A DNA stretch of 64,000 bases from a virus (taxonomy: Duplodnaviria > Heunggongvirae > Uroviricota > Caudoviricetes): IMG/VR virus record IMGVR_UViG_2537561978_000005, one strand, 5' to 3'. The translations under genes were made by a program, and so were the position numbers. The notes under the pieces are model-generated. The model saw only the letters and a list, made by a program, of their open reading frames with translations. It did not search any database and was not told where the DNA came from. Shown here in pieces: positions 9,152 through 62,232 of the stretch (position 1 is its first letter; each line of letters opens with the position of its first letter).

Positions 9152-9168
9152 TAAATTTCTAACATAGT
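9152..9168 (-). promoter_or_regulatory. Operator-like motif (TGTTAGAAA family)
   Basis: TTTCTAACA at 9156-9164, between terminator-flanked genes and upstream of the 9338 gene. Confidence 0.4.
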
Positions 9169-9253
9169 GTATTTATATACACTGTTGATCCTGGTGGATG
9201 GGATCGAGTAGGATCGCGGTCACTGCTCCGGTAGCGACTGCCAAAAAAGCAAA

Positions 9254-9276
9254 AGCCGCTTCTCAGCGGCTTTTTG
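9254..9276 (+). terminator. Rho-independent terminator
   Basis: AGCCGCT-tctc-AGCGGCT followed by TTTT. Confidence 0.6.
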
Positions 9277-9337
9277 GGTGTATAAATCCACTGCCATAGA
9301 TTTATACGGTAGATAGATTTTTTCACGGAACTATCTG

Positions 9338-10300
9338 GTGAGTATTTTAAATTCAGTTTCAGTAACTTTCAACACTTCTGAGTATAAAAACAACACTGAA
9401 TACCACAAAAAAATCAAAGGTCATCAGTTGAGTTTTTTTGCTCGTCATAGCGGTCTTCTTTCCCCTTCACATAGCGCCATTATTGCCGAGTTCGCCAACC
9501 TGGCAGGGTCTACCGATGAATACATGATCCGTCGCTCATATGCTGATATGTCCGAGATTACAGGACGCAGTATTTCTACTGTGCGCCGGGCATTTGCTGA
9601 AGCGACGAAGTGCGGAATGCTTGTTAAGCAACATCAGGTAGCGAATAACAATGCCCAGGTGTGTAACGTATATCGGTTTACGACACAATTTCTCCACTTC
9701 ATTCATGTAGCAATGGAGATAGGGGGTAAGCAGGGCATCAAATTTGCCAACGCCACAAAACTGGTTAAGCAGTTGATTTCAAAGGTTCGTTATTTTTTTG
9801 AAACTGGGAACCCCCTGTTCAAATTGAACAAGTCCCCCCATGTTCAAAATGAACAGCCAATAGAAAATAAGAGTCACTCTATAGCCAAAAGAAGAGAAAG
9901 ATCATGCGCGGTTCAGCCAAAGGCTTCACCTGCAGATAGTTCTCAAACGGATAACGGGGTACTGGATAAAAAACCAGTAATCAGGGAAGAACATACCAAC
10001 CACTGCCTGGCGGCGGCAAAAGCGAGAGCTGCAAAGCGTCGTTCAGACGAGGGGCACGCAAAACGGCAGGCTCTGTATCGTACCGCTGAAAATCTGGCAA
10101 AAAAATTTGCATGGATACGTAGTGCCGCTACCGCAGTGAATAAGCCTAAACAATCCAGTGCCCTAGATTTCTCAATGGATTATTCTGGCTCCCAGGGGTG
10201 TGCAACCATTGGTGAAGCCTTTGACCTGATGAAACAGCGTGGCTATCGGTCTGAATTTGACCGTGAGGATTGGTCAATCCCTGCGGGATTTAGGGGATGA
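9338..10300 (+). CDS. Hypothetical DNA-binding protein (HTH-like segment ITGRSISTVRRAFAEA); possible replication or kil-type function
   Basis: 320 aa ORF, GTG start, basic C-terminal region; operator-like motif about 180 bp upstream. Confidence 0.5.
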   Translation: MSILNSVSVTFNTSEYKNNTEYHKKIKGHQLSFFARHSGLLSPSHSAIIAEFANLAGSTDEYMIRRSYADMSEITGRSISTVRRAFAEATKCGMLVKQHQVANNNAQVCNVYRFTTQFLHFIHVAMEIGGKQGIKFANATKLVKQLISKVRYFFETGNPLFKLNKSPHVQNEQPIENKSHSIAKRRERSCAVQPKASPADSSQTDNGVLDKKPVIREEHTNHCLAAAKARAAKRRSDEGHAKRQALYRTAENLAKKFAWIRSAATAVNKPKQSSALDFSMDYSGSQGCATIGEAFDLMKQRGYRSEFDREDWSIPAGFRG

Positions 10301-10350
10301 CCTGTGTGTCTACAAAACATCCCAATGATCGGAAAATGCTCGGCCGATTA

Positions 10351-10367
10351 TTTATGTTAGAAAATTA
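10351..10367 (+). promoter_or_regulatory. Operator-like motif
   Basis: TGTTAGAAA at 10355-10363. Confidence 0.4.
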
Positions 10368-10369
10368 AT

Positions 10370-10397
10370 TTGCTGTTTCTAAAACGGAATGTATGAT
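10370..10397 (+). promoter_or_regulatory. Candidate sigma70 promoter overlapped by operator
   Basis: TTGCTG (10370-10375), 16-nt spacer, TATGAT (10392-10397). Confidence 0.3.
10372..10388 (-). promoter_or_regulatory. Operator-like motif (variant TTTCTAAAA), inverted partner of the previous one
   Basis: TTTCTAAAA at 10376-10384, lies in the spacer of a candidate promoter. Confidence 0.3.
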
Positions 10398-10438: not shown

Positions 10439-10467
10439 TTGATCTTCCATGTTTTCAGGCTTATATT
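10439..10467 (+). promoter_or_regulatory. Candidate sigma70 promoter for the immI-like module
   Basis: TTGATC (10439-10444), 17-nt spacer, TATATT (10462-10467). Confidence 0.35.
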
Positions 10468-10599
10468 CATGCCGTCGTAGCAAATTCTGCGACCGGGTTT
10501 GACAGCCTGAATGTTAGTGCGGACAACCGCAGATTTCCGATATTGCGGTATTTTTGTGTCCGTAAACCGCGTTACGCCCGAATTATGGTGGGGCGTGAT

Positions 10600-10690
10600 G
10601 GGGAGGCTTCGGCCTGCTGGTTTCACTAACGCCAGTCTGTCAACCCTGTCACGTCCTGCCACCTGTTTGACAGCGGGTGGCAGGTTGTTA
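10600..10690 (+). ncRNA. Candidate c4-like antisense regulatory RNA
   Basis: Nested inverted repeats (CCTGCCACC 10655-10663 with GGTGGCAGG 10676-10684; CTGTCAA with TTGACAG); TCACTAAC at 10623-10630 is complementary to GTTAGTGA at 10696-10703 covering the SD of the downstream icd-like gene. Confidence 0.3.
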
Positions 10691-12510: not shown

Positions 12511-15500
12511 TTGGACAAACTACTTCATTCAATCAGTGAAGCCTCCAGCTTAGGCGAACTGATTGAAATTGTTAGTCGGTTGCATAAATTACGTGCTGTT
12601 GCGACCTTTGGCGTCAGGAAAGCCGATGGCGTCAGTATTCAGAAAACACGCCGGGCAGCAAACAATGCCGCAGTAAATCTTCTTAATTCCCTTCCGCCCG
12701 GCTTCGATGGGGCGAAATTAACTGACGAACAACGTCAGATTCTTGCTGGGTATACCGGTGAAGGCGGCCTGACAGATGGTGAGGGCAGCCAATACGAATA
12801 CTACACGCCACAGTTTATGGCTGAAGGTATATGGGAGCTGTTTGCTGACTACGGTATTGATGGCGGTCACGTACTGGAACCATCAGCTGGCACGGGTATT
12901 TTCCAGGAGACAAAACGGCAGGGAATGATAATGACCAGCGCCGAGCTGTCTCCGATCTCCGGTCGAATCAACCAGCTGTTGCACCCGGAAGACGATGTGA
13001 ACATTGGGGCGTTTGAGGCTCTGGCGGCGAAAGACGCAATGTATGACCACGCTGTTGGTAACGTACCGTTTGGCGAAGGCCGTTCCGGCGTTGCAGGGCT
13101 TGATCCGGCATATGCAAACGAGAAGAACGTTGGCAATTACTTTGTGCTGCGCACGATCGACAAGGTTAAACCTGGTGGGCTTATCGTATTGGTGGTGCCG
13201 AATGGCATGACTGATGGTACGAAATACAAAAAATTGCGCGATAAAGTCAGCCGTAAAGCGGAATTTTTGGGCGCGCATCGTATGCCTTCCGGTACGTTCA
13301 GTGAATCAGGTACAGATACCGTGGTGGACGTATGGGTATTGCGTAAACACCCGGAAGCCTTCCTGGAGATGATCCCCGATACGGATGATTCGACGCTCAA
13401 ATCGGCAAACGTCCTTTGGGTTACCTTCCTCAAAGGGAAATGGTTTACAACCGAAGGGAAGCGATTTGTTTACGGCGACATGGAACGTACCAGCTTCCGC
13501 AATACCCTAGTGGTGAAAAAAGACGGTCGTGTATCCAATGAGTCGATGAAAACCGCGCTATCTCGTCGCTTTGATAGTCGCATCAATTGGGATTTGCTCG
13601 GCGTAACTACTCAGGCATGGCAGGGCGCGAAAGTGGGCGATAAACGCCTTGTAGGCGGTATCTGGCATGAGTTTGATGGTCTGAAATGGGTTCAGGACAC
13701 GACAACCAAATCCTCCGCGCTTGATGTAAGTCGATATGGTGTTTCGACGTTTGGCGATCTGCAGATCGCGTTCCAGTCAACAAACGGGATTCTGGCTTTG
13801 TCATGGGACCAGATATCGGCGATCGCGTCCGACTATCCATCGGTTGTCAGTGATGAAGTGGCAGCAATGATTCGCTTTGCTGGCAAGCAGCGAGAAAAAG
13901 ACAGGGAGCGCGTTATGCGCGGTGCACTGATAGGTCAGTTGATCAACAAGGCACTTGATTTGCGTAACCTGGGGGTGAACGTTGATGACAAACTGGCAGA
14001 TGCATCCCGCTTGGCGGCAGCAGAAGTTGCGAAGTATGGACCACCGCACGCGATTAAGCTGAATGGGCTTGCTGAAGCTGGCGCTAAAAACTGGATGACG
14101 TTCACTGGCAATGTGAAACAGGATGGTTCCACTTCTGACCTTCTGGCAGGGCGACTTGATGTAACGGATGGTGCTGCCGGTATTGACTTTACGCGTCCTG
14201 AACAAGTGATAGCACATCTTTTTAGTGATGTAGCCCTTAATCCTATAACGCTGGGCGACTTTCGTGAGGCGTTTGCTGGTGAACTGCCAGAGGACGACGA
14301 CGCGGTCCTTGAATACCTGGCGAAATTTGATGATATCGCTATTGATGGGTATGGCTGTCTGCTGCCGATGGACCGCGCCACCAGCGGCGATGTTGCAACC
14401 AAAACAGCACTGCTGGTGGGCTGGCGTGATGCGTCAACAGGTGAGCAGAAAGCGAACTTTGAGCGTCAGTTGGCGAAAATCGAAGAGAAACGCATTTTCA
14501 CGCCACTAAATAAAGTCACCGTTAATCTGAATGCCCGCTGGCTGGATCGCCGCTTGATAAAAGAGTTCCTGGCAGAGCAGGGCTATGACGAGTTTAAGTA
14601 CACTGAACCTGATCTGAAGGTCGTCGATGGCATTCTGGTATCTCCGGACGATTACGAAGGTAAGGACGGGGTATTTACCGGCTATCAGCTACGAACCGTA
14701 AACGGCAAAAACGGGAATGAGTTCAAGAAGGCCAACAATAAAGACGGCTTCCTGAACCAGTTAGAAAACTACCTGAACGGTGTTAAACCGCGTGGGCAGA
14801 ACGCTAACGAGTACCTGGATAAAATTGCTCAACTGGAAGTTAGCTTTAACGACTGGTTACGCACCCACCCGCAGGCGGATCAGATAGCCCGTGACTATAA
14901 CGACGCATTCAATGGTTTCATTCCGTTCACACATTCTGACGCACCGCTTGGCCTGGAAGGGATTAGTGGAAAGCGCATTCCTCTGACTTATCAGAATGAA
15001 GAAGTTCGGCGCTTGTCAGAAGATGGGCGTGGCATCATGGGATTTGGTACCGGGCTGGGTAAAACCACGACCGCGCTTGCGCTTGAGGCGTATAACTTCG
15101 AAACAGGTCGCACTAAACGCACGTGTATTGTTGTTCCGAAGGCGGTTTATCAGAACTGGTATCACGAGGCACAGAGTTTCTACAGTGCTGATGCCTTCGC
15201 CAATATGATGTTTATCGGTTTGGATGAAGTTCGTGATGACAGCGGAAATATTCTGACCGCGCCGGTGCTTGATGAAAATGGCGAACCACGCCTCGACAGT
15301 AACGGGCAGCCTCTTACCAGAAATGTTGTGAAAGAGTCCTCCAGCGCCGTTATCGTTCAGCGTATGAACATGATCCCGTCGTCAAATTGGCGAACGGTCA
15401 TCATGACAAAAGAACAATTCGCGTCTATCCCGCTACGAGAAAAAACCATCGAGGAGAACTCACAGCAAGCTGTCTTTAATGCTGTGGAAATGGGGCGTCT

Positions 15501-18500
15501 TGACCTGGCGTCCGGTAAACACCGTGATGCGCAGAAGAAGAACAAGATTAAGGATCAGGCCGCGAATACCGGTACAACGAAGAAGCAGAATATCCCTTAC
15601 TTTGAGGATATGAACTTCGATAGCGTGATTGCCGACGAGGGGCATAACTACCGCAACTCCTTTAATGCCGGGCGTGAAGCGGGACAACTGGCATATTTGC
15701 CTAACCCGGCAGTATCCAAGATGGCCCGCGACATGGCTGTAAAAGCTGCGTACATGATGAAACGCAACAACGGGCGTGGTGTAGTCATGCTGACGGCAAC
15801 ACCGCTGGTGAACAGTCCGATTGATGCCTTCAACATGCTGTCTACTGTCATTCCGCAGGAAGAGTGGATGCGTATGGGCATCATTACGCCTGATGATTTC
15901 GTTCGTGTGTTTGGCAAAACAGCCACAGTTCAGGTCCAGAAAATTTCCGGGGAAGTGGAAGAGAAGCAGGGGCTGGTGGGCTTCCAGAACCTTGACGGCC
16001 TGCGTGGTATTTTCCATCGTTGGACCACTCTGAAGACTGCTGCAGATGTCGGAGCGACGGTTAAAATTCCCGACATCATCGAGAACACCTTGCAGATCCC
16101 GATGACAGGGGAGCAGGAGACTGCTTATGAAGAGCTTCGTAAGCGTGCTCAGGAGTTAAGTCGCAATGATGAGCTGACAGTCGATGAAAACGGGCATATC
16201 ACTAACGACAAACCGGATGATTTCATCTTCTCCATCATCCGTGACATGGATAAGGTTGCTATAGACCCGGATCTGTATGCCAGTGCGATTACATTCCAGT
16301 TCCCCGTTGAGCTTGCAGACCAGGTAAAAGCTATTGCTGATGCCTTGCCAAAAGTAGCTGGCGGTAAAGTGGCAGATGATGTTGATGAGGCCGAGGAAGA
16401 CGGCGCTGGCGGGCTGGTCAGTACGCGTACCAGCAAGGTAGTGAAGACCGCTTTTAGTGAACATCCGACGCATGTTGAAATACGTGCCAGCATTGAACTG
16501 GAAGCTGAAATACTGAAGGCCATTGCGGCTGCCGGCATTGATATGCAGCAGGTGTCGCACCCCATCCCGCCGAAGTATGCCGCGCTGATCGAAAATCTTC
16601 GTGAAGGTCTGAAGAACGGTAAGCAGATCGTCTTTATTGATGAAAAAGCCCAGCACCAGAAGCTGCGCCGTATTATCGCCAGTGCACTGCAAATGCCGGA
16701 GCAGGAGATTGGCATTATCAATGCGACGACAGTTAGCCAGGCTGGTGGCATCAAGCTGAAGAAGGTGAATAAGCCGACCGAACCTACTCCAAACAAAAAC
16801 GGTGAATACAAAGAAGGGGCATGGGAAACCTACTACAGCAAACTTGCCCAATATGAGGATTATCTCTCCGCTAAAAATGATGCTGGCCTTGAGGGCATGG
16901 AAGGTATTGCCGCCGACTATAACGAAGGTCGCACGCGCATCATAATCTGTAACAAGAAGGCTGAAGTAGGTATTAACCTGCACATCGGGACAACCGATAT
17001 CCACCACCTGACACTACCCTGGACACCAGCCAGTATCGACCAACGAAATGGGCGCGGTGCGCGCGTAGGTTCACCGCAAGAAAAGGTCAATGTTCACTAC
17101 TATTGTGGCAAAGGCACATTCGACGACTTCCGTCTGGATACGCTGAAACGTAAGAAAGACTGGATCAAGATGGTGATGACATCCGACATGTCAGAGATCG
17201 CCAATGGTGATGCGGATGATGCTGATGAACGCGCCATTATGCTGGCGGCAAACCCGGAAGAACGCCGCGCAATCATGGCTCGCCAGGCGCAAGAGCGTGA
17301 AGAACGTCTGAAACTGAAAGCACAGCGCGAGGCCAACAATGCTCTCGATATCTACCTGAAAGCGGCAAACGCCGCCGGAAAAGATATCGGCATGATGGAG
17401 ACAGAACTGAAAAGCGCGATGGAACAGATAGAGTATTACCAGCGCAATCTTGACGACCTGATAAAAGCGGGTACGAACAGGAATGGGCAAAAATACGCGC
17501 TTGAGCAGTTGAGTAGCTACAGAAAACGTGCGCGGGTGCTGCGGTTTGCGATCACCAGGGCAAAAGACGCGGATACCATAATGAAACGCTCTCGTGGTGA
17601 TGTGGAGCGCGCTATTAAGTCTGGTGTGCTGGATATCAGTATCGATGTTATTCAGAACCCACAGGAATATATGCGCACTGACAAGAATATCCTGTTGCAT
17701 AAAGGTAGTTATTACCGTGCAGTCATTGATGATCGCGAAACAACAGCGATTGTCCGGGTGGAAAAAATTGACGGTGAAAAAGCACAATACCTCTGCCGTA
17801 TCGCCTGGCTGGATAGAGCAAGTCGTTACGCTCGAGCACCGGGGTCAATCGTTACATTGCCGTTTGACTCTGTGATTGAAGCGGTAACTTTTGAAGAGGG
17901 GGTAGCTGAATCGCGCGCAACGGCTGCGCGTGGTGTTCAGTGCCACCAGCTATCAACAATACTTACTCGCGATCAGTTCTATGATGCTATTCGCAATGGG
18001 GTAATGAATGTTATTGCTGGTAAACCTGGTAATGCATGGGGCGGTGGGTCAGCTATTAAATACTGGGCATATCGCACAGATGATGGTCAGATCGCGCTGT
18101 CATCGGCCTATGATGGCGTGATAGGCCAAAAAATCGGGCGAGCATCGGATATAGCACCTGAGCGATGGATATATCCTGATGGCAACGACGAGGCGCTGAA
18201 GCGTGAAGTGGCAAAAATACAAGCCAGTGATAACCCGCTGAATATCGTGGACGGCGAGGGATTCCTCCAGGCATTGTATGGGTATGATTACACCCAGGGA
18301 ATGCAGGCATGGGGCGCACAGGCAACGATGGATGATGTTGCCCATGAGTTCGAAAACTGGATGGCTGGGCGTGGTCTGTCAGGTCGTTCGCTTAATAAAG
18401 TCACTTCTGAAGATATTCTTAGCTTGTTCCGCAAACCGTCCGGAGAAGGTCTGGAATCATTCTGGAGGACCGTGCTGGCATACCGTTTATTCCAGGGCAG

Positions 18501-19347: not shown

Positions 19348-19383
19348 CAGATAAGGAGCGGCCCCAACTGGGGCCGAATTTGA

Positions 19384-19818
19384 ATGACGACATTAATTGA
19401 CACTGTAAAACCGACGGAATCCTACCTTGAGGACATTTTGCCGCAGGCGCTCAATGGCAGGAGTGAAGAGGCGTTTCTGGATGCATATCTGAATGGCATG
19501 GTGGAAAGGCTGAAACGAGATCCACAGCTTTATCACCTTTATGGGCCGTGGTGGCCTGCGCTTAAAACGTTATTGCTGGAGCGCGGCGACATATCATTTG
19601 GACAAGTTGTAGATAGTGATGTGGCAGAGATCTACAAAATGAGTCGCCCGGCGCTTACGGTTTTGGCTGGGCATCTGTATTCGAGCGATCGCCTGGAAAA
19701 TGACGCGGTATACAATCCTGTTCATGCTCTGGAAGTCGCACCTTATGCCGATGATACAGAGCCATACGTGTACACAAGTTACGACGAGTCTATAGAGAAA
19801 TATCGAATTATGGGGTAG
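19384..19818 (+). CDS. Hypothetical protein
   Basis: 144 aa ORF after the darB hairpin. Confidence 0.5.
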   Translation: MTTLIDTVKPTESYLEDILPQALNGRSEEAFLDAYLNGMVERLKRDPQLYHLYGPWWPALKTLLLERGDISFGQVVDSDVAEIYKMSRPALTVLAGHLYSSDRLENDAVYNPVHALEVAPYADDTEPYVYTSYDESIEKYRIMG

Positions 19819-19820
19819 CC

Positions 19821-20081: not shown

Positions 20082-20251
20082 AAATAACAGGTTGGGTAAA
20101 TGCCATGCGATTTACCCTCCTTGTTGATTAAGGTCACTCTTTACTCTAAAAGCAAATCCGACCTGTTGCATATAGACCATCCTTGAGTAGTATCTCTCTT
20201 GTTTTACAAATCTAACGTTGTTGTTATTATTTCGCATATTTACTATCAATG

Positions 20252-20268
20252 GGTGTGTTAGAAAAATA
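20252..20268 (+). promoter_or_regulatory. Operator-like motif
   Basis: TGTTAGAAA at 20256-20264; lies inside the 5' extension of track ORF 20218, arguing that extension is not coding. Confidence 0.35.
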
Positions 20269-20403
20269 GCGCGAAAGAGAAGGCGTCGTAGTGAATATTC
20301 TGAAACATCCCCACATGCCGCAGCTCTTAGAGAACTGGAGAAAAACCCAGATCTAATCAAAAGGAACCATGAGCATTACGAGCAGGTTCGCGTCCTGGAC
20401 TGG

Positions 20404-20712: not shown

Positions 20713-20726
20713 ACGGAGAAATCGTT

Positions 20727-21223: not shown

Positions 21224-21234
21224 TTGCATAAAAA

Positions 21235-21294: not shown

Positions 21295-21311
21295 AATATG
21301 TTAGAAAAATA
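21295..21311 (+). promoter_or_regulatory. Operator-like motif
   Basis: TGTTAGAAA at 21299-21307, 30 bp upstream of ATG 21337. Confidence 0.4.
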
Positions 21312-21336
21312 ATTTAACAAAGTAACGGGAATAGCA

Positions 21337-22700: not shown

Positions 22701-22717
22701 AAGTGTTAGAAATGTAT
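22701..22717 (+). promoter_or_regulatory. Operator-like motif
   Basis: TGTTAGAAA at 22705-22713. Confidence 0.35.
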
Positions 22718-23295
22718 AGTAATGCAAGAGCACGCTTTGGCACCGTGCAGGCCAAAGTTCAGCAGGTTTAGTGCGGAAAGTGGTTTCAGAGAGAGCACTT
22801 TGCGGAGTAAACGACAATACATGTTGAGCCACGGAAGGTCTTTTTAAGGTGTTCATTGATGATGGTCCGGCAGAGAGTAACGGTACATGCTGCATCTAAT
22901 CATCAATGCACATCTTCAACATTAAGGAGGCATAGGGATTTTTGTGGCGGTTACCTTTTGCCCTGAGTCTCCTTAATGTTGCGGTAATGCACCTATGCGG
23001 ATGTGGCCTTGCATTGTGTCTTGAAAGAATGGGGTAAGGCCGGGGATATCCCCAGGGGGAGGCACCCCCGCTGCAACGAACAGCCACAGACGGCAGTCGA
23101 GTGATGGAAACGTGTAAAGACTTTAAACCTCGTTACGGCTGGCGTGGCAAACGCGACAACCGAGACAGAGCGGTGACGGGCGGAGAGAGTGCCGCATCAA
23201 GAAAGAAGCCGACTTGTGATCCCTTTCAGCGGGCATTTGAAAGTGAATCCAGCTCAGGCAGTCGGCTTCTTTCTTGTGTGAGATGTAGCGTATTT

Positions 23296-29890: not shown

Positions 29891-30928
29891 TTACCAGAGC
29901 TTCGCGGCGTACTGCGTTTGGGGGAATGTGTATCCGTAACGTTCTTCGATTGCTTTGCCGTATTTTTTACGAGCTTCATTCAGTTTTATGCCGGTCAGGT
30001 CGTCTCCAGAGGCCATCATTACGTCTAACAATTCCAGATCCATTTTATCCAGCCTTGCCATTGCTTCACGTGATGTACGTATCTTACGCTCAATGATATG
30101 GCGAATAGCCGGATCGGCATCCTCCAGCATCTTAGCGGATTTCTGCTTAAGGCTTTCATTGCGAATATCGATGTTCCTTAAGATGTACGACTTCGCAACG
30201 TAGCTTGGCTGGTGTTTTTCCAGGTCACGAACACGATATAAGTTAAAATCGCCGAGAAGGCTGCAAGGTACCGATTCGACGCCAGAATAAATTGTAATGC
30301 TCCGGCGCTCACCAACATTATTGACAACGGGGATCGTTGTCTTCGGTAGTCTTGCGAAAACCAATGCGCCATGTGCGCCAACTCTAAAGCGAGAAAGGGC
30401 ATTGCTGCCTTCGATGTTTGTTGTCAGCACAACATCTGTATATGCCTCTTTACGCGCCCGGTAGATCTCGCCTTCAGGCTCAGCTTCAAAGAAGCGCTGT
30501 TCTTCTTCAAGAGCACCTACGATTTGAGAAAAAACCCTATTTTTCAGGCTTTTCTTTATGATTTTGTCGTATTTTTTGAGCAATTGTTCACGTGTAAATG
30601 TACGTGTTGTTGTAGCGCTTTGCACAACAACATGCGTGCTTTGATTGGTGTCCTCAATGATGAATGGGATCGGAGAATATACAGACTCAACAATGTTCGA
30701 CGCTTTGCCGTCGGCATCGCGGCACATGTCAACGAAGGCTTTCCATTCAGCAAGACATTTTTCAGCTTCTTCTAATATGTTTTGGTCATGCGTTAATGCA
30801 ACATGGCGGAATTCCTCGCCAGCATAACTGGTATCATGGAAAACAGAGTTTGCGACCACCAGCTCTTTCCACCGTTCAGCGGTTTGCAGGAACCGTTTGT
30901 ACTCTTTCTCGATCGACTTCTTACTCAT
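29891..30928 (-). CDS. Hypothetical protein; candidate master repressor by position and by operator at its own start
   Basis: 345 aa; sits between pacB and lox-cre where P1 carries c1; operator-like motif 20 bp upstream of its ATG; no sequence-level match asserted. Confidence 0.5.
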   Translation of the reverse strand: MSKKSIEKEYKRFLQTAERWKELVVANSVFHDTSYAGEEFRHVALTHDQNILEEAEKCLAEWKAFVDMCRDADGKASNIVESVYSPIPFIIEDTNQSTHVVVQSATTTRTFTREQLLKKYDKIIKKSLKNRVFSQIVGALEEEQRFFEAEPEGEIYRARKEAYTDVVLTTNIEGSNALSRFRVGAHGALVFARLPKTTIPVVNNVGERRSITIYSGVESVPCSLLGDFNLYRVRDLEKHQPSYVAKSYILRNIDIRNESLKQKSAKMLEDADPAIRHIIERKIRTSREAMARLDKMDLELLDVMMASGDDLTGIKLNEARKKYGKAIEERYGYTFPQTQYAAKLW

Positions 30929-30943
30929 TATTCCTACTCGATT

Positions 30944-30960
30944 TAGTTTTCTAACATAAA
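30944..30960 (-). promoter_or_regulatory. Operator-like motif
   Basis: TTTCTAACA at 30948-30956, reads ATGTTAGAAAAC on the strand of the downstream gene. Confidence 0.4.
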
Positions 30961-31137
30961 ATTACTATGACAAATTTATGTCGAATAACAGAGTGAGTAA
31001 AGGATCGAACTGTGATTTTTTGTCATCAAATTTAGAAAACCAACTGTATAAACCACGCTTCGCAAATTAAAGACCATGAAGGCAACGTGTTACTGGTCAG
31101 AATCAATCTGTGATGGATTAAAAAAAATCGCCATTTT

Positions 31138-31322: not shown

Positions 31323-32351
31323 ATGAGTGAATTAATTATCTCTGGCAGCTCCGGTGGTTTTCTGCGCAACATTGGCAAAGAGTACCAGGAGGCCGCAGAA
31401 AACTTTATGCGGTTCATGAATGACCAGGGGGCTTATGCGCCGAATACTCTGCGCGACCTCCGGTTGGTGTTTCATTCATGGGCGCGCTGGTGTCACGCTC
31501 GCCAGCTTGCCTGGTTTCCGATCTCACCAGAAATGGCCCGCGAGTATTTTCTTCAGCTGCATGATGCCGATCTGGCTTCGACCACCATTGATAAGCACTA
31601 CGCCATGCTGAATATGCTGCTTTCGCATTGTGGCCTTCCGCCACTTTCGGATGATAAAAGTGTTTCTCTGGCTATGCGGCGCATCCGGCGCGAAGCGGCA
31701 ACTGAAAAAGGCGAACGAACAGGCCAGGCTATACCGCTTCGGTGGGACGATCTGAAACTGCTCGACGTCCTGTTGTCCAGGTCAGAACGGCTGGTGGACC
31801 TGCGCAACCGGGCTTTTCTCTTTGTTGCATACAATACGCTGATGCGTATGTCGGAAATCTCGCGTATTCGTGTAGGAGATCTGGATCAAACAGGTGACAC
31901 TGTCACGCTACATATTTCACACACGAAGACAATAACGACCGCCGCCGGGCTTGATAAGGTGCTTTCCCGTCGCACTACCGCTGTGCTGAATGACTGGCTG
32001 GATGTTTCCGGGCTTCGCGAACATCCTGACGCAGTGCTGTTCCCGCCGATACACCGTAGCAATAAGGCCAGGATCACGACAACGCCCCTTACTGCACCTG
32101 CAATGGAGAAAATATTCAGCGACGCCTGGGTGTTGCTGAATAAAAGAGATGCTACGCCAAACAAAGGAAGATACCGGACGTGGACCGGGCATAGTGCACG
32201 CGTCGGGGCCGCTATTGATATGGCTGAAAAGCAGGTGTCTATGGTGGAGATCATGCAGGAAGGAACCTGGAAGAAACCGGAAACACTTATGCGGTATCTT
32301 CGCCGTGGCGGCGTGTCTGTGGGGGCTAATAGCCGCCTGATGGATTCGTAA
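31323..32351 (+). CDS. cre: Tyrosine recombinase, divergent Cre homologue
   Basis: 342 aa; alignable along its length with Cre from memory (WFP, VSLAMRRIRRE, RNRAFLFVAYNTLMRMSEISRIRVGDL, WTGHSARVGAAIDMA, C-terminal catalytic Tyr in RYLRR region); roughly 45% identity. Confidence 0.75.
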   Translation: MSELIISGSSGGFLRNIGKEYQEAAENFMRFMNDQGAYAPNTLRDLRLVFHSWARWCHARQLAWFPISPEMAREYFLQLHDADLASTTIDKHYAMLNMLLSHCGLPPLSDDKSVSLAMRRIRREAATEKGERTGQAIPLRWDDLKLLDVLLSRSERLVDLRNRAFLFVAYNTLMRMSEISRIRVGDLDQTGDTVTLHISHTKTITTAAGLDKVLSRRTTAVLNDWLDVSGLREHPDAVLFPPIHRSNKARITTTPLTAPAMEKIFSDAWVLLNKRDATPNKGRYRTWTGHSARVGAAIDMAEKQVSMVEIMQEGTWKKPETLMRYLRRGGVSVGANSRLMDS

Positions 32352-32353
32352 AT

Positions 32354-32370
32354 TAAATTTCTAACACATC
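32354..32370 (-). promoter_or_regulatory. Operator-like motif
   Basis: TTTCTAACA at 32358-32366 just after the cre stop. Confidence 0.35.
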
Positions 32371-45137: not shown

Positions 45138-45154
45138 AATATGTTAGAAAACTA
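45138..45154 (+). promoter_or_regulatory. Operator-like motif
   Basis: TGTTAGAAA at 45142-45150, with a second degenerate copy TGTTCTAAC at 45162-45170. Confidence 0.4.
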
Positions 45155-45327
45155 AAATCAATGTTCTAACGTGATTTTGAGTGCGTAAATGATTTGATCA
45201 GACTTTAAGCTGCCCTCCCTTCACCTGCATTAGCGTCAGATTTCCGCTAAAAACCGCGCCCGTGTCTAGTTTCTATAGCCAGAACCATCAATACGGCTAT
45301 ATAAATTCACTTCATGCAGAGCCTGGG

Positions 45328-47989: not shown

Positions 47990-48006
47990 TTTGTGTTAGA
48001 AAATCA
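47990..48006 (+). promoter_or_regulatory. Operator-like motif in divergent promoter region
   Basis: TGTTAGAAA at 47994-48002. Confidence 0.4.
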
Positions 48007-48071
48007 ATTTTGAATATCTAACCATTTTGATCAATCATAGAAAAATCGTTGAAAAGTAAGAGACTGCCATC

Positions 48072-48650
48072 ATGCAGAAACAGAGTTATTGGGAGAAACA
48101 GAGACAAAAAGCCATGCAAAAATTGGCTGACCCGGCCTGGCGAGAGGAACAAAGGGCAAAGCGCCTTCAACAAGCTCAACGCCAGCAGCAGCGAGCGAGA
48201 GAAAAAGCCGCATCGCCTGAATATCGGCAAAAGAAAATTGAAAAAGCAAAGCAATATGAACAGCGGAGAAAAGATAAAGCTGTATCCGCTCCGTCCAAAA
48301 AAACACGCACGTCACGCGGCCTGAAAGGCAGATCACTCACAGCCGATGAACGCCGGATACAGACCGCTATCGGTGCTCTCCCCTGCATTGCCTGCCATAT
48401 TCACGGGCAACATAGCCCAGTGGTATCCCTGCACCATATCTTCGGGAGAACGGCAGAGAACGCGCATAAATATGTCCTCCCTTTGTGTAAATGGCACCAC
48501 CAGTACGCAGCGCCAGCCGAGGTCAGAGAACAATATCCCTGGCTGGTCCCTGTTCATGCTGACGGAAAAATAGGCGGAAAAGCAGATTTCATGCGGCACA
48601 ATGCCGATGAAATGACGTTGTATCAGATGGCGATTGAGTTGATAAATTAG
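48072..48650 (+). CDS. HNH-type nuclease-like protein (Ref-like)
   Basis: 192 aa, basic N-terminus then CIACHIHGQH...HHIFGRTAENAHKYVLPLCKWHH His/Cys cluster. Confidence 0.4.
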   Translation: MQKQSYWEKQRQKAMQKLADPAWREEQRAKRLQQAQRQQQRAREKAASPEYRQKKIEKAKQYEQRRKDKAVSAPSKKTRTSRGLKGRSLTADERRIQTAIGALPCIACHIHGQHSPVVSLHHIFGRTAENAHKYVLPLCKWHHQYAAPAEVREQYPWLVPVHADGKIGGKADFMRHNADEMTLYQMAIELIN

Positions 48651-48664
48651 TTTTCTAACATTTT
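48648..48664 (-). promoter_or_regulatory. Operator-like motif
   Basis: TTTCTAACA at 48652-48660. Confidence 0.4.
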
Positions 48665-51289: not shown

Positions 51290-51595
51290 ATGCTCTATGC
51301 GGTTCCTCAGCAAGCTTCTGATTCTTTGAAGTTAATCAAGACTGTACTTCAGCTTATAGCATCTCAACAAGAAGTGTCACAGCAGTTAAAGTTACGGGTT
51401 TATGAGGTGATCAGAGAAGCCTCAAACTTAAGTGTAGATAAAGGTGATCAATTACAGATTCCTTCTCACAGAGAGTCCATCTCGCTCGCGGTAGAGATAC
51501 GCCACACTAAGGCGCTCGCCCAGGTGCTAACCAAAGTAACTAGCGAAGATATGTTAGAACCCGTAATGGCCCGGAATGTATTAGAGTACATTTAA
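51290..51595 (+). CDS. Hypothetical small protein, first gene of AT-rich operon
   Basis: 101 aa, strong RBS AAGGAGGGG; stop overlaps next start (TAATG). Confidence 0.6.
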   Translation: MLYAVPQQASDSLKLIKTVLQLIASQQEVSQQLKLRVYEVIREASNLSVDKGDQLQIPSHRESISLAVEIRHTKALAQVLTKVTSEDMLEPVMARNVLEYI

Positions 51596-52668
51596 TGCTT
51601 GCATTTACACAACTTACATTAGTTCGAAATAAGCTAAGGGAGATATCAGAATCTCCCTATTTTTCTAAAGACATGCATGAATATCTTGCTGTTCTACAAG
51701 AAGCGGTAGATAAGCTCTATGAAAACCATGTGAATGTTGCTGATAAAATAATTGCGGATTGTACTTTTTTTATCACCGATGCAGTTAATTTTTTCACTGG
51801 CAGTACTACAAAGAAAATTCCCTACGAGATTGTTTATTGCTTAAATGATGCCTGTAAAAAATGGATAAGTGAAAAAACACTTATAACCACAGCCCTATCT
51901 CCAGATATGCATGGGTTTTATTTTAAGTCTGTAAACAAGAATTTGTATTCTTTATTTGATGAAGTTTTAAATGTCAAATTCGAGGTCGAATTAATTCAGA
52001 TTTCATTACCTGAAATGTACAGAAGACGACCATTATGCTCTATACCTTTATATCACGAATTGGGACATTTCGTTGATATTAGCAAAGGTATTTCTGAGCT
52101 TGCCTGTCTTAACTATCGTTCCAAGGACAAAGGCACACTTCCAGGACCAGAATGGAGTAATCTACCTGATGTTATTTGGATAAATCATTGCAGAGAATAT
52201 TTTGCAGATCTATTTAGTGCCCAATTTATTGGAAAAAGTGGGGTAGATTTCTTATACAAATTAGCTGGCTCTCATCCTGCAAGCTATACTCACCCATCCA
52301 CAGAAGATAGAGTTAAAATTGTAAGCGACTTTTTGAACAAAGTGGAAAATCCAGTTGTTGGCATGTTCAATGCTGTGATATCAGCCTTACATAAGGGTGG
52401 GCAGATTATTTCTCCTTGTTTGACATTGCCGACACCTTTGCTTGATGTGAAATCAGCTTTTGATAATGTGCGTCCTTTTGTTATTCGCGACCACAATGAA
52501 ATGCATGCTTTTATTAACAGCAGCTGGCAGTACTTATGCTCTGAATGGGAAAAACCTACGGGTATATGGTCTGGGTTGTCAAAAGAAGCCATAGAAAAAA
52601 CTATAAATGATTTGGTTGAAAAATCGATTCGAAACGTAATGATTCTTGAAAAATGGAGTGCACAATGA
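51595..52668 (+). CDS. ImmA/IrrE-like (M78-type) HExxH zinc-metallopeptidase-domain protein
   Basis: 357 aa; PLYHELGHFVD followed about 40 residues later by HCREYFADLFSAQF, matching the HExxH...E..FA..LL arrangement of M78 peptidases; about 35% GC. Confidence 0.5.
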   Translation: MLAFTQLTLVRNKLREISESPYFSKDMHEYLAVLQEAVDKLYENHVNVADKIIADCTFFITDAVNFFTGSTTKKIPYEIVYCLNDACKKWISEKTLITTALSPDMHGFYFKSVNKNLYSLFDEVLNVKFEVELIQISLPEMYRRRPLCSIPLYHELGHFVDISKGISELACLNYRSKDKGTLPGPEWSNLPDVIWINHCREYFADLFSAQFIGKSGVDFLYKLAGSHPASYTHPSTEDRVKIVSDFLNKVENPVVGMFNAVISALHKGGQIISPCLTLPTPLLDVKSAFDNVRPFVIRDHNEMHAFINSSWQYLCSEWEKPTGIWSGLSKEAIEKTINDLVEKSIRNVMILEKWSAQ

Positions 52669-53282
52669 ATCTCCTAAGCAAAGCTGAATTGCTGCAATAT
52701 TATGAATCAGAAGAACCTGAGTCGTTGTTCATTGAACCTCTTCTAAATAAAAACCAAATTGGAAACTTCACCATAGACCTTAGACTTGGTTACGATTTTT
52801 TAGTGTCTATTATGACAAGGAAGCCGTCAATAGAGTTAATTCCCTCAAAAAACAATGATACTCATCAACCAATCAGAACATTTTTCCAGGAAACAAGGAG
52901 AGATCTTGGGGATAGGTTCATTGTTTACCCGAATCAAGTGGTACTGGCAACAACATTAGAATATGTTTGTTTGCCACCAGATTGCTACGCTGATGTATTG
53001 TCCAGAAGCAGCTATACAAGGCTTGGTCTTTCATTAAATACCATGATACAACCAGGGTACAGAGGCTGTATATCTTTAGAGTTATTTAATCATGGGAATA
53101 GCCCTGTAGAACTTATTGTTGGATCTCGCATATGTCAAATTCGTATATTCAAGAATGAAACTGTCGGTGAATACATAAGTCATGAGTCTCACAGGAAATA
53201 TTTCGGAAATGTGAGGCCAACCGTCTCAGCAGCAGAAAGTGATAATGAATTAAATATGCTGGAAAAGATCCGACAAAAATGA
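52653..53282 (+). CDS. dCTP deaminase-family (dUTPase superfamily) enzyme
   Basis: 209 aa; IDLRLGYDF, LATTLEYVCLP, SRSSYTRLGLSLNT, GYRGCISLELFNHGNSPVEL, RICQIRIF align with E. coli Dcd core blocks from memory; 16-nt overlap with upstream gene. Confidence 0.55.
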   Translation: MECTMNLLSKAELLQYYESEEPESLFIEPLLNKNQIGNFTIDLRLGYDFLVSIMTRKPSIELIPSKNNDTHQPIRTFFQETRRDLGDRFIVYPNQVVLATTLEYVCLPPDCYADVLSRSSYTRLGLSLNTMIQPGYRGCISLELFNHGNSPVELIVGSRICQIRIFKNETVGEYISHESHRKYFGNVRPTVSAAESDNELNMLEKIRQK

Positions 53283-53370
53283 AGACTTTAATGCTTTATA
53301 TTATAAAAACATACAGCGACAACGCAGCCACCAAGATGTGTTGTCGCCATGTTCAAAGTGCTAACACAGT

Positions 53371-53763
53371 TTAAAAATCACCTGCGCGCTGTTTTTCAAG
53401 CACAGATTTAACATTTGGCACTTTCCCTTTAAAAGAATGGAAAGTGCCACATTTTTCTGTTTTAACTTCGCGCAGAGCTTCGCCATCGGCGTTCTGCCAT
53501 TGATGGGATAATGTCATATCACCGCGAGAAGGAACATCCAGCGAGTACAGCGTGTAAGTTCCCCCCATCTCCGCATACTCCTGGAACACATAGCTCATTA
53601 CGTCAGATTCAGTTTTTCGGTGTACGTTATCAACCTTATTCCCATTCAGAAATATGGCATCTGGATAGATTTTTATATCAAACCGACCGCACTTAACTTG
53701 TAAATTTCCGGCGCTCGCGATCAAAGGGAAAGACGCCAGTAAAGCAATTGTCAATCTTTTCAA
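53371..53763 (-). CDS. Secreted hypothetical protein
   Basis: 130 aa, signal peptide MKRLTIALLASFPLIASA, TTG start after GGAGG. Confidence 0.5.
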   Translation of the reverse strand: MKRLTIALLASFPLIASAGNLQVKCGRFDIKIYPDAIFLNGNKVDNVHRKTESDVMSYVFQEYAEMGGTYTLYSLDVPSRGDMTLSHQWQNADGEALREVKTEKCGTFHSFKGKVPNVKSVLEKQRAGDF

Positions 53764-53783
53764 TTCTGCCTCCGCTGCGTAAC

Positions 53784-54407
53784 TTATTGCCCGTATTTTT
53801 TACACCATTGCTCTGCCATTTGTTTGGCTAAAGGCCCGGCTACTGCACTGTATTCTGCTGTTTTACTTTGCACACATGAAGCAGATGGTTTTTTATTTCG
53901 CTGCTCGGTTAGTTTGCGCTCATAAGCCATCATGCTATCGAACCCGGCAATATCACTTTGGCGAAGCATTCCCTTTTTAACCAAAAATTGCTGCCCCTCG
54001 GGCACCAACGCAAGCATAAAAAGTGGTTGCAATAACTCACCTAATCCTTGCTGGCGATACACTTCGAATTGCTGCCATCCCTGACTTAATCTGGAAAGAG
54101 TATCTTTGGTTGAATAACCTGTTTTTGTTATAGCTTTGTCCGTCAGATATGCTGTATATGCAAAAACGCAAAAGTCAGTTTTACCAATAAACTGAGTTCC
54201 AACAGGCCGTAATGGAATGCCCTCCCTCTTGCAAAAGTCCATAATGGCCGCTTGTGAATGATCCCCACCAGCATTATTCATAACCTGCTGCCCTGCCCTG
54301 AATTGTGCAGGTAACGCAGTTGCATTGGCAGTATTAGCAGATACGCATCCCAACATAGCCGCGAGCGCGGCCCCTAAAACCCTTAACTTCACTACACCAT
54401 CCTTCAT
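53784..54407 (-). CDS. Putative lipoprotein
   Basis: 207 aa, lipobox LGC after hydrophobic h-region (VLGAALAAMLGCVS). Confidence 0.55.
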   Translation of the reverse strand: MKDGVVKLRVLGAALAAMLGCVSANTANATALPAQFRAGQQVMNNAGGDHSQAAIMDFCKREGIPLRPVGTQFIGKTDFCVFAYTAYLTDKAITKTGYSTKDTLSRLSQGWQQFEVYRQQGLGELLQPLFMLALVPEGQQFLVKKGMLRQSDIAGFDSMMAYERKLTEQRNKKPSASCVQSKTAEYSAVAGPLAKQMAEQWCKKYGQ

Positions 54408-54623
54408 GTAAACAAAATGAAGTTTTATGTTATAAAAACAATTAACTACATCAACATGATTTAGGCCAAATTTCGGTCAAAAAATAAAATCCACAAAAAG
54501 TGGTTGACACTATTTTGGAAATCACAAACTGCACATAATCCATCGCGCTAACGGCTCCCGTTGAAGGTTCTTTTGACGATTAACTTTCAGCCGAAGCGCG
54601 GTAGGGAGTCATAACGCCAAAGC

Positions 54624-55329: not shown

Positions 55330-55657
55330 TCACATTAGTAGCTTTGTTAACTCCCTCAATACCAGGTAGAAGAGTAACAAAAATATTGACGCGAGTATTT
55401 GAGTGGTCAATGAAGCGTTCATAAACAGATCAATTAGCATTAATAATTCGAATATAACATCCATGTCATTCACTCCGTTTAATTTTTAATCTAATGCCAG
55501 CAAATGAAGCTGGCCCCCGCACAAAGATTAATGAAAGTCACTTGTCACCAGTGAGGGGATTTATGAACCACATCCCCCTGAACTGGTGGCCTGTCTGTTT
55601 CTCACATTTCACACCCTGCATACAGTTTCCCCCAGGTTATGACTGAGAGGCTTTGTT

Positions 55658-59784: not shown

Positions 59785-60548
59785 CTTCAAATAAAACCCT
59801 CCTGGCGCGAACAGGTGAATGGCAAACCTCACGCACAGGAAAATTCCAGACCACGGGCTTTGAAAACGTGGATAACGCGTTTGCGACGCTAATCAGCAAC
59901 ATTTTTTCTGATATCTTACTGGTGGCCCCCGCGCCGGAAGAAAAACGCTTTGCGTCATTCCTGAATCGTCCACCAGCAGAGCGTGTCTATGTGGCCCGTT
60001 TCGACAATGCGATCGAGTTTCTTAAAGCAGTTCGTCGCGCAAATGCCGGGCAAGGGAGAAAACCTGAAAACCAGAACATTAACCGGGATGCTCTCCCCCT
60101 GGTCAATATCTCACGCAATATGGATATCAATTATATCAACGATGATCAGCAGATTGACCGCAAAAAAGTAGCCAGTTTTTGCGAACCGGATACCGGAATG
60201 CCTTTAGCAGAACTGGAATACACCCAGGCCATTCTGACGTATGACGTTACGTTAATGGCAACTGATAAAGCGACCATGAGTCTGATGTGTAATTCGCTGG
60301 GCGCACGGCTTCGCCTGATGACAGGTACACAATTTGAAGCAACCACTCACCTTGTTCGTGTCCCGGTCCCGCTGATTTGCTCGATACAGGATGCCAAAGA
60401 AGTCGGCTTTACGGATGTTTCAGCACCAATTGGAGAAGAGCGTATTTATGCCACACAAGCGCCGATAAGTGTGATTGCAGACGTGATCACAGCATGGGAG
60501 TTGGACGCAAAACGTATTATTACCGAAACCTCGATATCTATGGGGTGA
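59781..60548 (+). CDS. Hypothetical protein, possible virion component
   Basis: 255 aa, ATGA overlap with upstream gene. Confidence 0.5.
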   Translation: MTSNKTLLARTGEWQTSRTGKFQTTGFENVDNAFATLISNIFSDILLVAPAPEEKRFASFLNRPPAERVYVARFDNAIEFLKAVRRANAGQGRKPENQNINRDALPLVNISRNMDINYINDDQQIDRKKVASFCEPDTGMPLAELEYTQAILTYDVTLMATDKATMSLMCNSLGARLRLMTGTQFEATTHLVRVPVPLICSIQDAKEVGFTDVSAPIGEERIYATQAPISVIADVITAWELDAKRIITETSISMG

Positions 60549-60551
60549 TAA

Positions 60552-61532
60552 GTGGCCCAGGAGTTACAACAATATTTTCTACAGTCAGTGCTCATTAACG
60601 ATAACAAAGTGCCACGAGACTGGATTTTTACCGCAGTATATGTAGAAAAAACCAGCCTCAAAGCCCCTTTGCTAAAACTGGAAATTCATGACGCTACCGG
60701 CACCGTAATTGATGACTGGAAAGCCAAATACGGTGCATCGCTGGTGGCTGAAATGGGCGATCCAAACGGTAATGCCGGCACTTTTAAAACAGATTTCTTT
60801 GTTACGTCTGCAATGCTGGCTGGTGATGTTGTTACCGTTATTGCTGTCAGTGAAGACGTGCGCAGGTTTAAGATCCCCTCCCCGCGCACAAATTTACATA
60901 CCAACAAAACACCAGACGCTATATTCAAGGCATATTCCGGCAAGCTTAAAATTACCAGCAGCGTGCTAAAACGCGCAGTTACATATCATCTGAATGCCGG
61001 TGACAAACCGTCAAAAATGCTTTCGGAGATAGCGCGAGACAAAGGTGCATTATGTTGGGTATGCCGGGGGGAATTTAACTTTTACACCCTGGCTGATCTG
61101 ATGAAGCAAACGCCATCATTTACCTACGAGGGGAATAACCCTAAAGCAGAATACACTTTGTCCAAAATGCGCCTACTCCAACAGGAACATGCGACAACAG
61201 CAAAGAATCAATATCGTTTTGTTGGGTATTCCATGACCGATGGCTACGTCGAATATGGCGATAGCTCACTCCCAGTGCGTTATATATCCGACTCTGATAT
61301 GGAAACTCTTCGTAATATGCAGCTGTCTCTCGTCCCCAAAATGGATATAGAAGTCGCAGGCAATCCTGATATAAAACCGGGGATGGTGATAGAGATTATC
61401 GTATACCGCTATGACCAGGAAAACCGCATTGATGAATCAATGCCCCGTAAGCTGATAGTAAAAAATGTTGCGCACTTTGAAGACCGCGTAGGCTACACAA
61501 CACGAATGATATTGGGAGTGCCGAACAAATGA
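60552..61532 (+). CDS. Hypothetical protein, possible baseplate component
   Basis: 326 aa, GTG start after GGGGTGA; coupled to next gene. Confidence 0.5.
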   Translation: MAQELQQYFLQSVLINDNKVPRDWIFTAVYVEKTSLKAPLLKLEIHDATGTVIDDWKAKYGASLVAEMGDPNGNAGTFKTDFFVTSAMLAGDVVTVIAVSEDVRRFKIPSPRTNLHTNKTPDAIFKAYSGKLKITSSVLKRAVTYHLNAGDKPSKMLSEIARDKGALCWVCRGEFNFYTLADLMKQTPSFTYEGNNPKAEYTLSKMRLLQQEHATTAKNQYRFVGYSMTDGYVEYGDSSLPVRYISDSDMETLRNMQLSLVPKMDIEVAGNPDIKPGMVIEIIVYRYDQENRIDESMPRKLIVKNVAHFEDRVGYTTRMILGVPNK

Positions 61533-62182
61533 AGCGTAGAGCGCAAATTGTTGGAACTGTGCACCCGGCAGGGCTTATGCGTGCTCAAGTCCGTGTTTTA
61601 CCTGACTGGAATGGCGTTCCTGATGACGATCTACCCTGGGCGGAATACCTGTTACCCATCGGAAACGCTTTTGTACCCACAGTCAAAGGTGACCTGGTCT
61701 GGGTAGAGTTTCCTTATTTAGATGTTAACGGTCGAATAGACACCAGACGCCCAATGATAGTTGGTGCCGCTCAGGATGCACCGGGAGGAATTCCAAACGT
61801 TGCACCAGAAGCATCTGGCAAAGGCAACGGCTGGACGCCGCCGGAAGTAGATGGAGCACCTCCCCGCCCCCAAATCTCAGCAACGAAAGACTTCGTTATT
61901 CACCGCAACAATATTCTTGAAGTACGAACTGCTGGTGGCGGCTATGAAATTGCCAATACGGCAGCAGGCTCAAGGATTGGCATGAATGAGTCCGGGCAGA
62001 TATATATCATTGGTCCGGCTGATGTAATCGTGAATGCAGGAGGGAGTGTTAACGTCAAATCAACCAACAACATCAATGTTAAAGGGGAAAATATTGCTGT
62101 CACCGCTAACGGAGACATAGCTTTCAAGGCAGGAGGAACCTTTCAGGCCACTGCTGGCAACTTCGATTTCAAGAAAGGATAG
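61529..62182 (+). CDS. Baseplate spike-like protein with Gly-rich beta-helix repeats
   Basis: 217 aa; repeated NAGGSVNVKSTNNINVKGENIAVTANGDIAFKAGGTFQATAGNFDFK resembles gpV/Mu gp45-type spike repeats. Confidence 0.4.
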   Translation: MKRRAQIVGTVHPAGLMRAQVRVLPDWNGVPDDDLPWAEYLLPIGNAFVPTVKGDLVWVEFPYLDVNGRIDTRRPMIVGAAQDAPGGIPNVAPEASGKGNGWTPPEVDGAPPRPQISATKDFVIHRNNILEVRTAGGGYEIANTAAGSRIGMNESGQIYIIGPADVIVNAGGSVNVKSTNNINVKGENIAVTANGDIAFKAGGTFQATAGNFDFKKG

Positions 62183-62193
62183 AAAATGCACCC

Positions 62194-62210
62194 ATTTGTG
62201 TTAGATAATT
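62194..62210 (+). promoter_or_regulatory. Operator-like motif (variant TGTTAGATA), left arm of palindrome
   Basis: Part of CATTTGTGTTAGA (62193-62205) inverted with TCTAACACAAATG (62222-62234). Confidence 0.4.
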
Positions 62211-62215
62211 AATAT

Positions 62216-62232
62216 GTATTTTCTAACACAAA
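62216..62232 (-). promoter_or_regulatory. Operator-like motif, right arm of palindrome
   Basis: TTTCTAACA at 62220-62228, 14 bp upstream of the rdgC-like ATG. Confidence 0.4.

Follow-up and report, generated by a model that had tools for sequence, protein, structure and literature searches.

Which protein reads the AT-rich element, with core TGTTAGAAA, that recurs before so many genes of the caudovirus record IMGVR_UViG_2537561978_000005? The 64,000-nucleotide stretch analysed here in full (the window) aligns with phage D6 over ~51.5 kb at 92-99.6% identity (76% in one short segment), and that comparison makes it closely related to D6, which is a plasmid prophage of the P1 kind. An earlier note, made from the letters alone, had taken the element for a dispersed operator bound by one master repressor, in the manner of phage P1, and had named the gene at 29891-30928 as the candidate repressor. 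The evidence assembled below makes it highly probable, as judged from sequence, that the sites are operators of the D6-type C1 repressor encoded by that gene.

A scattered asymmetric element

Twelve exact copies of TGTTAGAAA stand in the window where 0.58 would be expected, a number reached in none of 100 dinucleotide shuffles: on the plus strand at 10355, 20256, 21299, 22548, 22704, 45142 and 47994, and on the minus strand at 9156, 30948, 32358, 48652 and 62220. Three further copies carry one mismatch, namely TTTTAGAAA (10376, minus), TATTAGAAA (26515, minus) and TGTTAGATA (62199, plus). The element is thus present at every coordinate that the earlier note had listed, two of which need shifting by one base (22705 to 22704 and 62198 to 62199). 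With both the count and the shuffles confined to the 10.5 kb of intergenic DNA (45% G+C), there are 11 copies against 0.117 expected and a maximum of 3 in 1000 shuffles; the frequency is therefore far above that of AT-rich intergenic DNA, and the scattered element is real and non-random. When all 8- to 10-mers are ranked without bias, relative to what an order-2 Markov model predicts, TGTTAGAAA comes first after Chi (GCTGGTGG), and the same ranking applied to P1 as a positive control yields, after Chi, the known operator core TTGCTCTAAT (14 copies versus 0.42).

Aligned, the 12 exact copies are conserved from position -2 to +16, with an extra A at -8, in an asymmetric profile that has no internal dyad; the consensus, held as a 19-bp asymmetric matrix, reads T-R-TGTTAGAAA-W-N-TAA-W-T-T. 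Built from the exact sites, the matrix finds 16 sites at 14 bits or more (0.27 in Markov shuffles), adding 20202, 26515, 54428 and 62199 to the exact copies; with weaker partners counted, about 21 half-sites lie at 14 loci between 9148 and 62228. The near-exclusive intergenic placement claimed at the outset stands: 14 of the 16 matrix sites are intergenic (P ~7e-13, under an over-generous open reading frame [ORF] model that makes 90% of the DNA coding), and the remaining two lie in doubtful ORFs, one within the first codons of a TTG-started pmgM frame and the other in an ORF unannotated in D6. Orientation toward gene starts holds less generally than had been claimed, the strongest half-site being co-oriented with the downstream gene at about 8 of the 14 loci.

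At 5 of the 14 loci an inverted partner stands at an exact offset of 21, agreeing with the reversed core in 6 to 9 of its 9 positions and completing a 30-bp unit; a 6/9 match has a background probability of 0.010 per position. Both inverted pairs described earlier are there (10355/10376 and 62192-62235), although the palindrome at the second has arms of 18 nt, longer than the 13 first given, and three more pairs keep the same offset (26494/26515, 45142/45163 and 47994/48015). The bivalent operators of P1 (Oban, Oc1ab) are similarly laid out, in 28 bp as against 30 bp in the window. Bivalent loci are presumably either stronger sites or a means of controlling divergent promoters.

The repressor gene

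29891..30928, minus strand: c1, gene for the D6-type master repressor (345 aa), 100% identical to annotated D6 C1

The gene singled out in the earlier note was well chosen: besides its identity with D6 C1, its product is a distant, significant homolog of P1 C1. In a direct BLASTP comparison the window and P1 proteins are 21% identical over 240 aa (E 2e-8), the former being 62 aa longer (345 versus 283 aa), and both match phrog_1678 end to end (E 3e-170 and 3e-140). By tblastn at E 1e-5 or better, no other phage matches D6-type C1; among PLSDB plasmids, 149 match the window C1 (tblastn, E up to 1e-3), with identities from 100% down to ~25% that are at least 60% in 131 of them. Neither the local Pfam copy nor the PDB sequences hold a match to C1, a repressor without a recognisable helix-turn-helix (HTH) family. 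A protein database assigns PF27008 to D6-type C1 proteins; the local Pfam-A gave no family for D6 or P1 C1, and PF27008 is apparently newer than that copy.

Sites at the positions of P1 operators

In P1, 22 dispersed operators share an asymmetric 17-bp consensus, with RepL and Lpa under their control (PMC8546580). The P1 RefSeq record annotates experimentally defined C1 operators at ref, mat, c4, kilA-repL, dmt, ban, 26/pmgL, pmgR, lpa and c1, which when extracted give the consensus ATTGCTCTAATAAATTT, the same as that stated in PMC8546580. The named operators of the P1/P7 C1 system are Oref, Omat, Oc4, OrepL, Odmt, Oban, O26, OpmgR, Olpa and Oc1a-e, with ~20-22 half-sites. At ten of the 14 window loci, what follows is an ortholog of a gene under operator control in P1: repL, c4-icd-ant, pmgM, pmgS, the tRNA operon, lpa, c1, ref, mat and hrdC. 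The sites, all of them predicted operators, are as follows; bivalent units carry no single strand.

9148..9164, minus strand: monovalent operator between pro and repL (repL ortholog at 9338-10300); exact core, 27.4 bits; P1 counterpart OrepL

10355..10384, bivalent: 30-bp operator before immI module 1; 10355 plus at 29.7 bits, 10376 minus matching 8/9 at offset 21; P1 counterpart Oc4

20202..20272, plus strand: two direct half-sites in the pmgM promoter region, 20202-20218 (weak, 14.4 bits) and 20256-20272 (20.8 bits); P1 counterpart O26/pmgL-pmgM

21299..21315, plus strand: monovalent operator 22 bp upstream of pmgS; 28.4 bits; P1 counterpart OpmgR; conserved in D6, L006 and L007

22548..22564, plus strand: monovalent operator just after pmgS and before the tRNA operon; 27.0 bits; P1 counterpart Oban

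22704..22720, plus strand: second operator before the tRNA operon; 19.6 bits; conserved in D6, L006 and L007

26494..26523, bivalent: 30-bp operator upstream of lpa; 26515 minus at 20.9 bits, partner matching 6/9 at offset 21; P1 counterpart Olpa

30940..30956, minus strand: proximal c1 operator, 12 bp before the start codon of c1; 26.9 bits; P1 counterpart Oc1

31031..31047, plus strand: second site upstream of c1, in inverted orientation, TTTAGAAAA, at a distance of ~100 bp

32350..32366, minus strand: monovalent operator right after dre and before the ORF at 32425; 28.8 bits; no P1 counterpart

45142..45171, bivalent: operator upstream of the leftward-reading pdcB; 27.8 bits, partner matching 7/9 at offset 21; no P1 counterpart; L009 has a site at the equivalent place

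47994..48023, bivalent: operator between ref and the divergently read, leftward early operon; 26.9 bits, partner matching 7/9 at offset 21; P1 counterpart Oref; conserved in D6, L006, L007 and L009

48644..48660, minus strand: monovalent operator where ref ends, at the head of the DNA running into immI module 2; 27.3 bits

54428..54444, plus strand: weak candidate operator, TGTTATAAA, ~200 bp upstream of mat; 14.6 bits; P1 counterpart Omat

62199..62228, bivalent: operator between baseplate gene 5 and hrdC/rdgC-dmt; 23.1 and 22.6 bits, partner matching 9/9 at offset 21; P1 counterpart Odmt; inside the palindrome 62192-62235, whose arms are 94% complementary

The L numbers denote loci from related plasmids that are taken up in the next section. 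The lpa gene, at 26602-26994, encodes a late-gene activator (Lpa-like, phrog_1704). P1 Oban heads a tRNA-tci-ban operon; the tRNAs of the window lie at 23781-25073, and a promoter-like site is found near the 22548 operator, at 22580-22608. The best sigma-70-like site near pmgM (20203-20230, 10/12 matches) overlaps the first half-site there. The candidate at 54428..54444 varies in sequence among relatives and is the least certain part of the set.

Change of the motif with the C1 lineage

In D6 itself TGTTAGAAA has 12 exact copies genome-wide, the same total as in the window, 11 of them at orthologous positions; at 9156, the window core is exact and that of D6 is TGTTAGCAA. For a wider comparison, ~41 kb around c1 was taken from nine of the 149 PLSDB plasmids. 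One of the relatives, L007, keeps the 9-bp core unchanged at 11/11 orthologous strong sites, in surroundings (500 bp) that are 76-92% identical, the pmgM site retaining it despite a local identity of only 76%. In plasmids whose C1 is 90%, 80% and 42% identical, the top word other than Chi is again TGTTAGAAA, or GTTAGAAAA. For the Citrobacter, Leclercia and Pantoea plasmids (clade 3, C1 ~29% identical), the ranking gives CCTTAGAAT, and its sites occupy the gene positions seen in the window, ahead of rdgC, ref, c1, lpa and pmgM and behind both the recombinase gene and pro. The position after dre likewise holds sites in L008, L009, L012 and L013, each in the motif of its own clade. The motif tracks the repressor lineage, since the ranked word changes with the C1 clade while the gene positions stay.

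Between P1, the window and L012 (C1 ~29% identical) the three words exclude one another, the counts of TGTTAGAAA/TGCTCTAAT/CCTTAGAAT being 0/14/0, 12/0/0 and 1/0/6, respectively. The window operator also fails to match the P1/P7 consensus. With TGCTCTAAT lacking from the window and TGTTAGAAA from P1, the window element therefore represents a different (heteroimmune) specificity class, and the earlier remark that its sequence is not that of the P1 operator was correct. The larger likeness drawn there, of P1-like scattered asymmetric operators serving one master repressor, gains support from the homology of C1, the matching gene positions and the change of motif with C1 lineage; every computational test made here agrees with it.

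Alignment of c1-upstream regions from five relatives, with C1 from 100% to 42% identical, leaves invariant islands at the proximal operator (30940..30956), at the inverted TTTTCTAA ~100 bp upstream, and at a promoter-like pair, TTTACT-17-TAxATT. The second of these islands is the site at 31031..31047, which scores below the matrix threshold and is therefore listed for its conservation. A third site abuts rox and is degenerate in the window: the relatives have an operator-like GTTAGAAA against the rox arm other than that of the dre-ward promoter described below, the window AAGTTATAAA.

Plasmid pK91 of Salmonella Typhi (L008, NZ_CP029912.1) has only two motif copies in 41 kb, one beside c1 and one beside dre. 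It is a conjugative IncFIB multiresistance plasmid with a D6-like prophage remnant at 14000-21900, comprising c1 (68% identical, its operator intact), a dre-like recombinase gene, dut, phd/doc, and a terminase gene that is truncated and broken by IS26.

Set in register at TTAGA, the operator classes of six C1 lineages show flanks particular to each lineage:

P1 (reverse complement): A-TTAG(A/T)-GCAAT, core from experimental annotation or k-mer ranking

D6 class: TG-TTAGA-AA, k-mer ranking

L009 (C1 42% identical to that of D6): g-TTAGA-AAAt

Clade 3: CC-TTAGA-at, k-mer ranking

L013 and L014: further variants, TTAGAA search

The flanks thus read TG..AAA in the D6 class, CC..AT in the Citrobacter, Leclercia and Pantoea plasmids, and A..GCAAT in P1 (reverse complement), with variants in two other plasmids. 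For D6, clade 3 and P1 the cores come from independent sources, k-mer ranking or experimental annotation. For L013 and L014, ranking of 22-25 kb gave no clear word, and the sites there are only suggestive, because searching for TTAGAA to find them is circular. One tentative reading, whose chances we put a little short of even, is that the C1 family recognises an invariant TTAGA together with flanks specific to each lineage, at a dozen operator positions that are fixed in the genome.

Other candidates for the reader of the element

The alternative that survives best, unlikely as it is, holds that the element is the operator of another prophage DNA-binding protein inherited with c1, for instance a small unannotated regulator. 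Any gene tightly linked to c1 would also give the co-variation of motif and C1, and, the immunity region having no Lxc or Coi homologs, other unrecognised regulators may exist. Against such a protein, the positions match proven P1 C1 operators at ten orthologous genes, including directly before c1, and the pK91 remnant, having lost most phage genes, keeps two copies that flank c1 and dre. The TTAGA core, moreover, is common to the D6, clade-3 and P1 operators, which fits divergence within a single protein family.

Less probable still, and in our judgment very improbable, is a promoter element or a host-factor site belonging to AT-rich early promoters, such as a sigma-70 subsite, a site for IHF, Fis or H-NS, or the late box used by Lpa. 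All sites do lie in AT-rich upstream regions, and several overlap or abut weak -35/-10-like hexamers. P1 and the D6-type plasmids, however, live in the same hosts with mutually exclusive motifs, where a host-factor site would be shared; the element lacks promoter hexamer spacing; and an inverted geometry held at 30 bp is what protein operators typically show. Downstream of the sites lie early and regulatory genes, lpa among them, and not late structural operons. As an identity for the motif, the Lpa-dependent late promoter box was rejected, the -22 box of P1 being different in sequence and nearly absent from the window: the P1 box AAGTGACTT-N4-TANNNT has one exact match, at 55525-55543.

That match, AAGTGACTT-N4-TAATCT on the minus strand, lies in the intergenic region between mat and gene 26. 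P1 has two divergent late promoters, LP26 and LPpmgL, beside gene 26. The other late promoters of the window phage presumably use a different -22 box.

Chance, a compositional feature or a functionless dispersed repeat, for which only the general AT-richness of intergenic DNA speaks, can be dismissed on the intergenic enrichment (11 versus 0.12 expected) and the conservation of the core through flanks of 76-92% identity, the motif persisting even where C1 is only 42% identical.

The assignment of the element to D6-type C1 also has evidence to contend with. Four loci are weak or have no P1 counterpart (32358, 45142, 54428 and 20202), and the alignment of the D6 operator with that of P1 is ambiguous, two alignments being possible. 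Scans for sigma-70 promoters are weak as well: only some sites overlap a convincing -35/-10 pair, and matches are no commoner than in shuffles. Since strict and relaxed scans alike did no better than shuffles, they are not relied on here; they are compatible with operators at or near promoters, and the conserved TTTACT-17-TAAATT upstream of c1 is an exception among them. The predicted structure of C1 shows no recognisable DNA-binding fold. Finally, P1 has two accessory modulators, the co-repressor Lxc and the C1 inactivator Coi, and no homolog of either was found in the window, where analogs beyond the reach of sequence comparison are possible; nor does any coi-like ORF lie upstream of c1. The lack of both homologs means that the circuit departs from that of P1.

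An 86-aa ORF at 19821-20081 occupies the P1 lxc position (after darB-ulx); it gives no alignment with P1 Lxc and falls in another PHROG. Its product could be a co-repressor without homology to Lxc, or something unrelated.

A predicted C1 circuit and its kin

We infer that C1 is the binding protein and that binding represses. In the prophage state, C1 would bind about 21 asymmetric half-sites of 17-19 bp at the 14 loci, by analogy as one monomer per half-site, and would thereby shut off the early and lytic regulatory promoters of the lytic replication gene repL, both c4-icd-ant modules, lpa, ref, hrdC-dmt, pmgM, pmgS, the tRNA operon and pdcB. It would also repress its own gene, and, as in P1, looping could occur among the two or three sites that lie upstream of c1. 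This mechanism of repression is modelled on that of P1 (PMC8546580).

The two systems have much in common: P1/P7 and the window have homologous repressors, many dispersed asymmetric half-sites of 17-19 bp, sites before c1 and bivalent inverted operators; in P1 and the window alike an operator heads the c4-icd-ant antirepressor module, and TTAGA lies inside both operators. Unlike P1, the window has two c4-icd-ant (immI) modules instead of one and extra sites after dre and before pdcB, while Ossb, Orlf, Oppp and OpmgT of P1 are without counterparts in it.

Lambdoid CI/Cro operators (OL/OR) have dyad symmetry, lie in clusters at two loci and bind HTH dimers. An autoregulated master prophage repressor with multiple operators is common to lambdoid CI and, as predicted, to the window system; the half-sites of the window differ in being asymmetric and dispersed over at least 53 kb.

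Neighbouring features

The predicted operators before the two immI modules lead into the following antisense RNAs, which would be downstream parts of the circuit and are not themselves operators:

10581..10666, plus strand: C4 antisense RNA of immI module 1; Rfam RF01695, 68.8 bits

49320..49407, plus strand: C4 antisense RNA of immI module 2; Rfam RF01695, 76 bits

The order operator, c4 RNA, icd, ant is found in the window with RF01695 twice and RF03163 once, and both ant genes match antirepressor PHROGs (phrog_63). Downstream of the operator at 10355..10384 come the C4 target a1b1 (10461-10513, RF03163), the c4 RNA, and then icd and ant; downstream of that at 48644..48660 come an isrK-like RNA (49197-49275, RF01394), the c4 RNA, and again icd and ant. 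The modules therefore differ upstream of c4, the first having the c4-a1b1 target and the second the match to an isrK-like, Hfq-binding RNA.

A perfect palindrome, AGTGTAT-ATAA-ATACACT, at ~9166-9183 adjoins the 9148-9164 operator upstream of repL; it could be the site of another regulator or a part of the repL control region. Within the recombination site rox (31139-31170) lies the -35 hexamer of TTGGCA-16-TATAAT (11/12, 31152-31179, toward dre), the region's best sigma-70-like promoter, so Dre binding at rox could affect dre transcription.

Five window segments are without a D6 counterpart (34936-36124, 37810-38817, 39929-43800, 46135-46774 and 50904-54355), and appear from the alignment to be accessory-gene replacements relative to the type phage. 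The tRNA cluster at 23781-25073 holds five genes (Asn, Tyr, Thr, Ser-UGA, Met/Ile2-CAT) where the D6 record annotates three (Ser, Thr, Asn); against D6 that segment reaches only 87-88% identity or fails to align.

Chi is the most over-represented 8-mer of the window, with 46 copies (31 on the plus strand and 15 on the minus) against ~3 expected, spread over its whole length (8523, 10991, 14412 and so on to 63111). Its enrichment is equally extreme in P1, where there are 50 copies, and in the majority of the related plasmids looked at; it is clearly weaker at the Xenorhabdus locus (L014), and in pK91 Chi is outside the top words.

Meaning for D6-like elements and the C1 family

The set described here is the D6-class counterpart of the known C1-operator network of P1, the same logic in another specificity, and no new regulatory principle. 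D6 and c1 were already known; its operators are unannotated in public records, the two D6 entries (MF356679.1 and AY753669.1) annotating c1, rox and cix and no operator features. No description of D6 operators was found in the accessible full-text literature, where a search with the motif string returned unrelated primer matches only; an earlier description in print is possible.

For the C1 family, of which we know of no solved structure, the D6 class, P1 and one or more further classes jointly supply orthogonal repressor-operator pairs, as well as comparative data on asymmetric DNA recognition. If the TTAGA reading is true, these pairs form a natural series of mutually orthogonal, monomeric repressors and operators, allowing a readable specificity code for an uncharacterised DNA-binding fold and explaining the heteroimmunity of P1-like phage-plasmids. 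D6-like plasmid prophages are common in Escherichia coli and Salmonella, and some carry resistance genes; for annotating such elements the operator set is a sequence signature. It would also define the C1 regulon, that is, the genes silent in the prophage, and would explain immunity specificity relative to P1.

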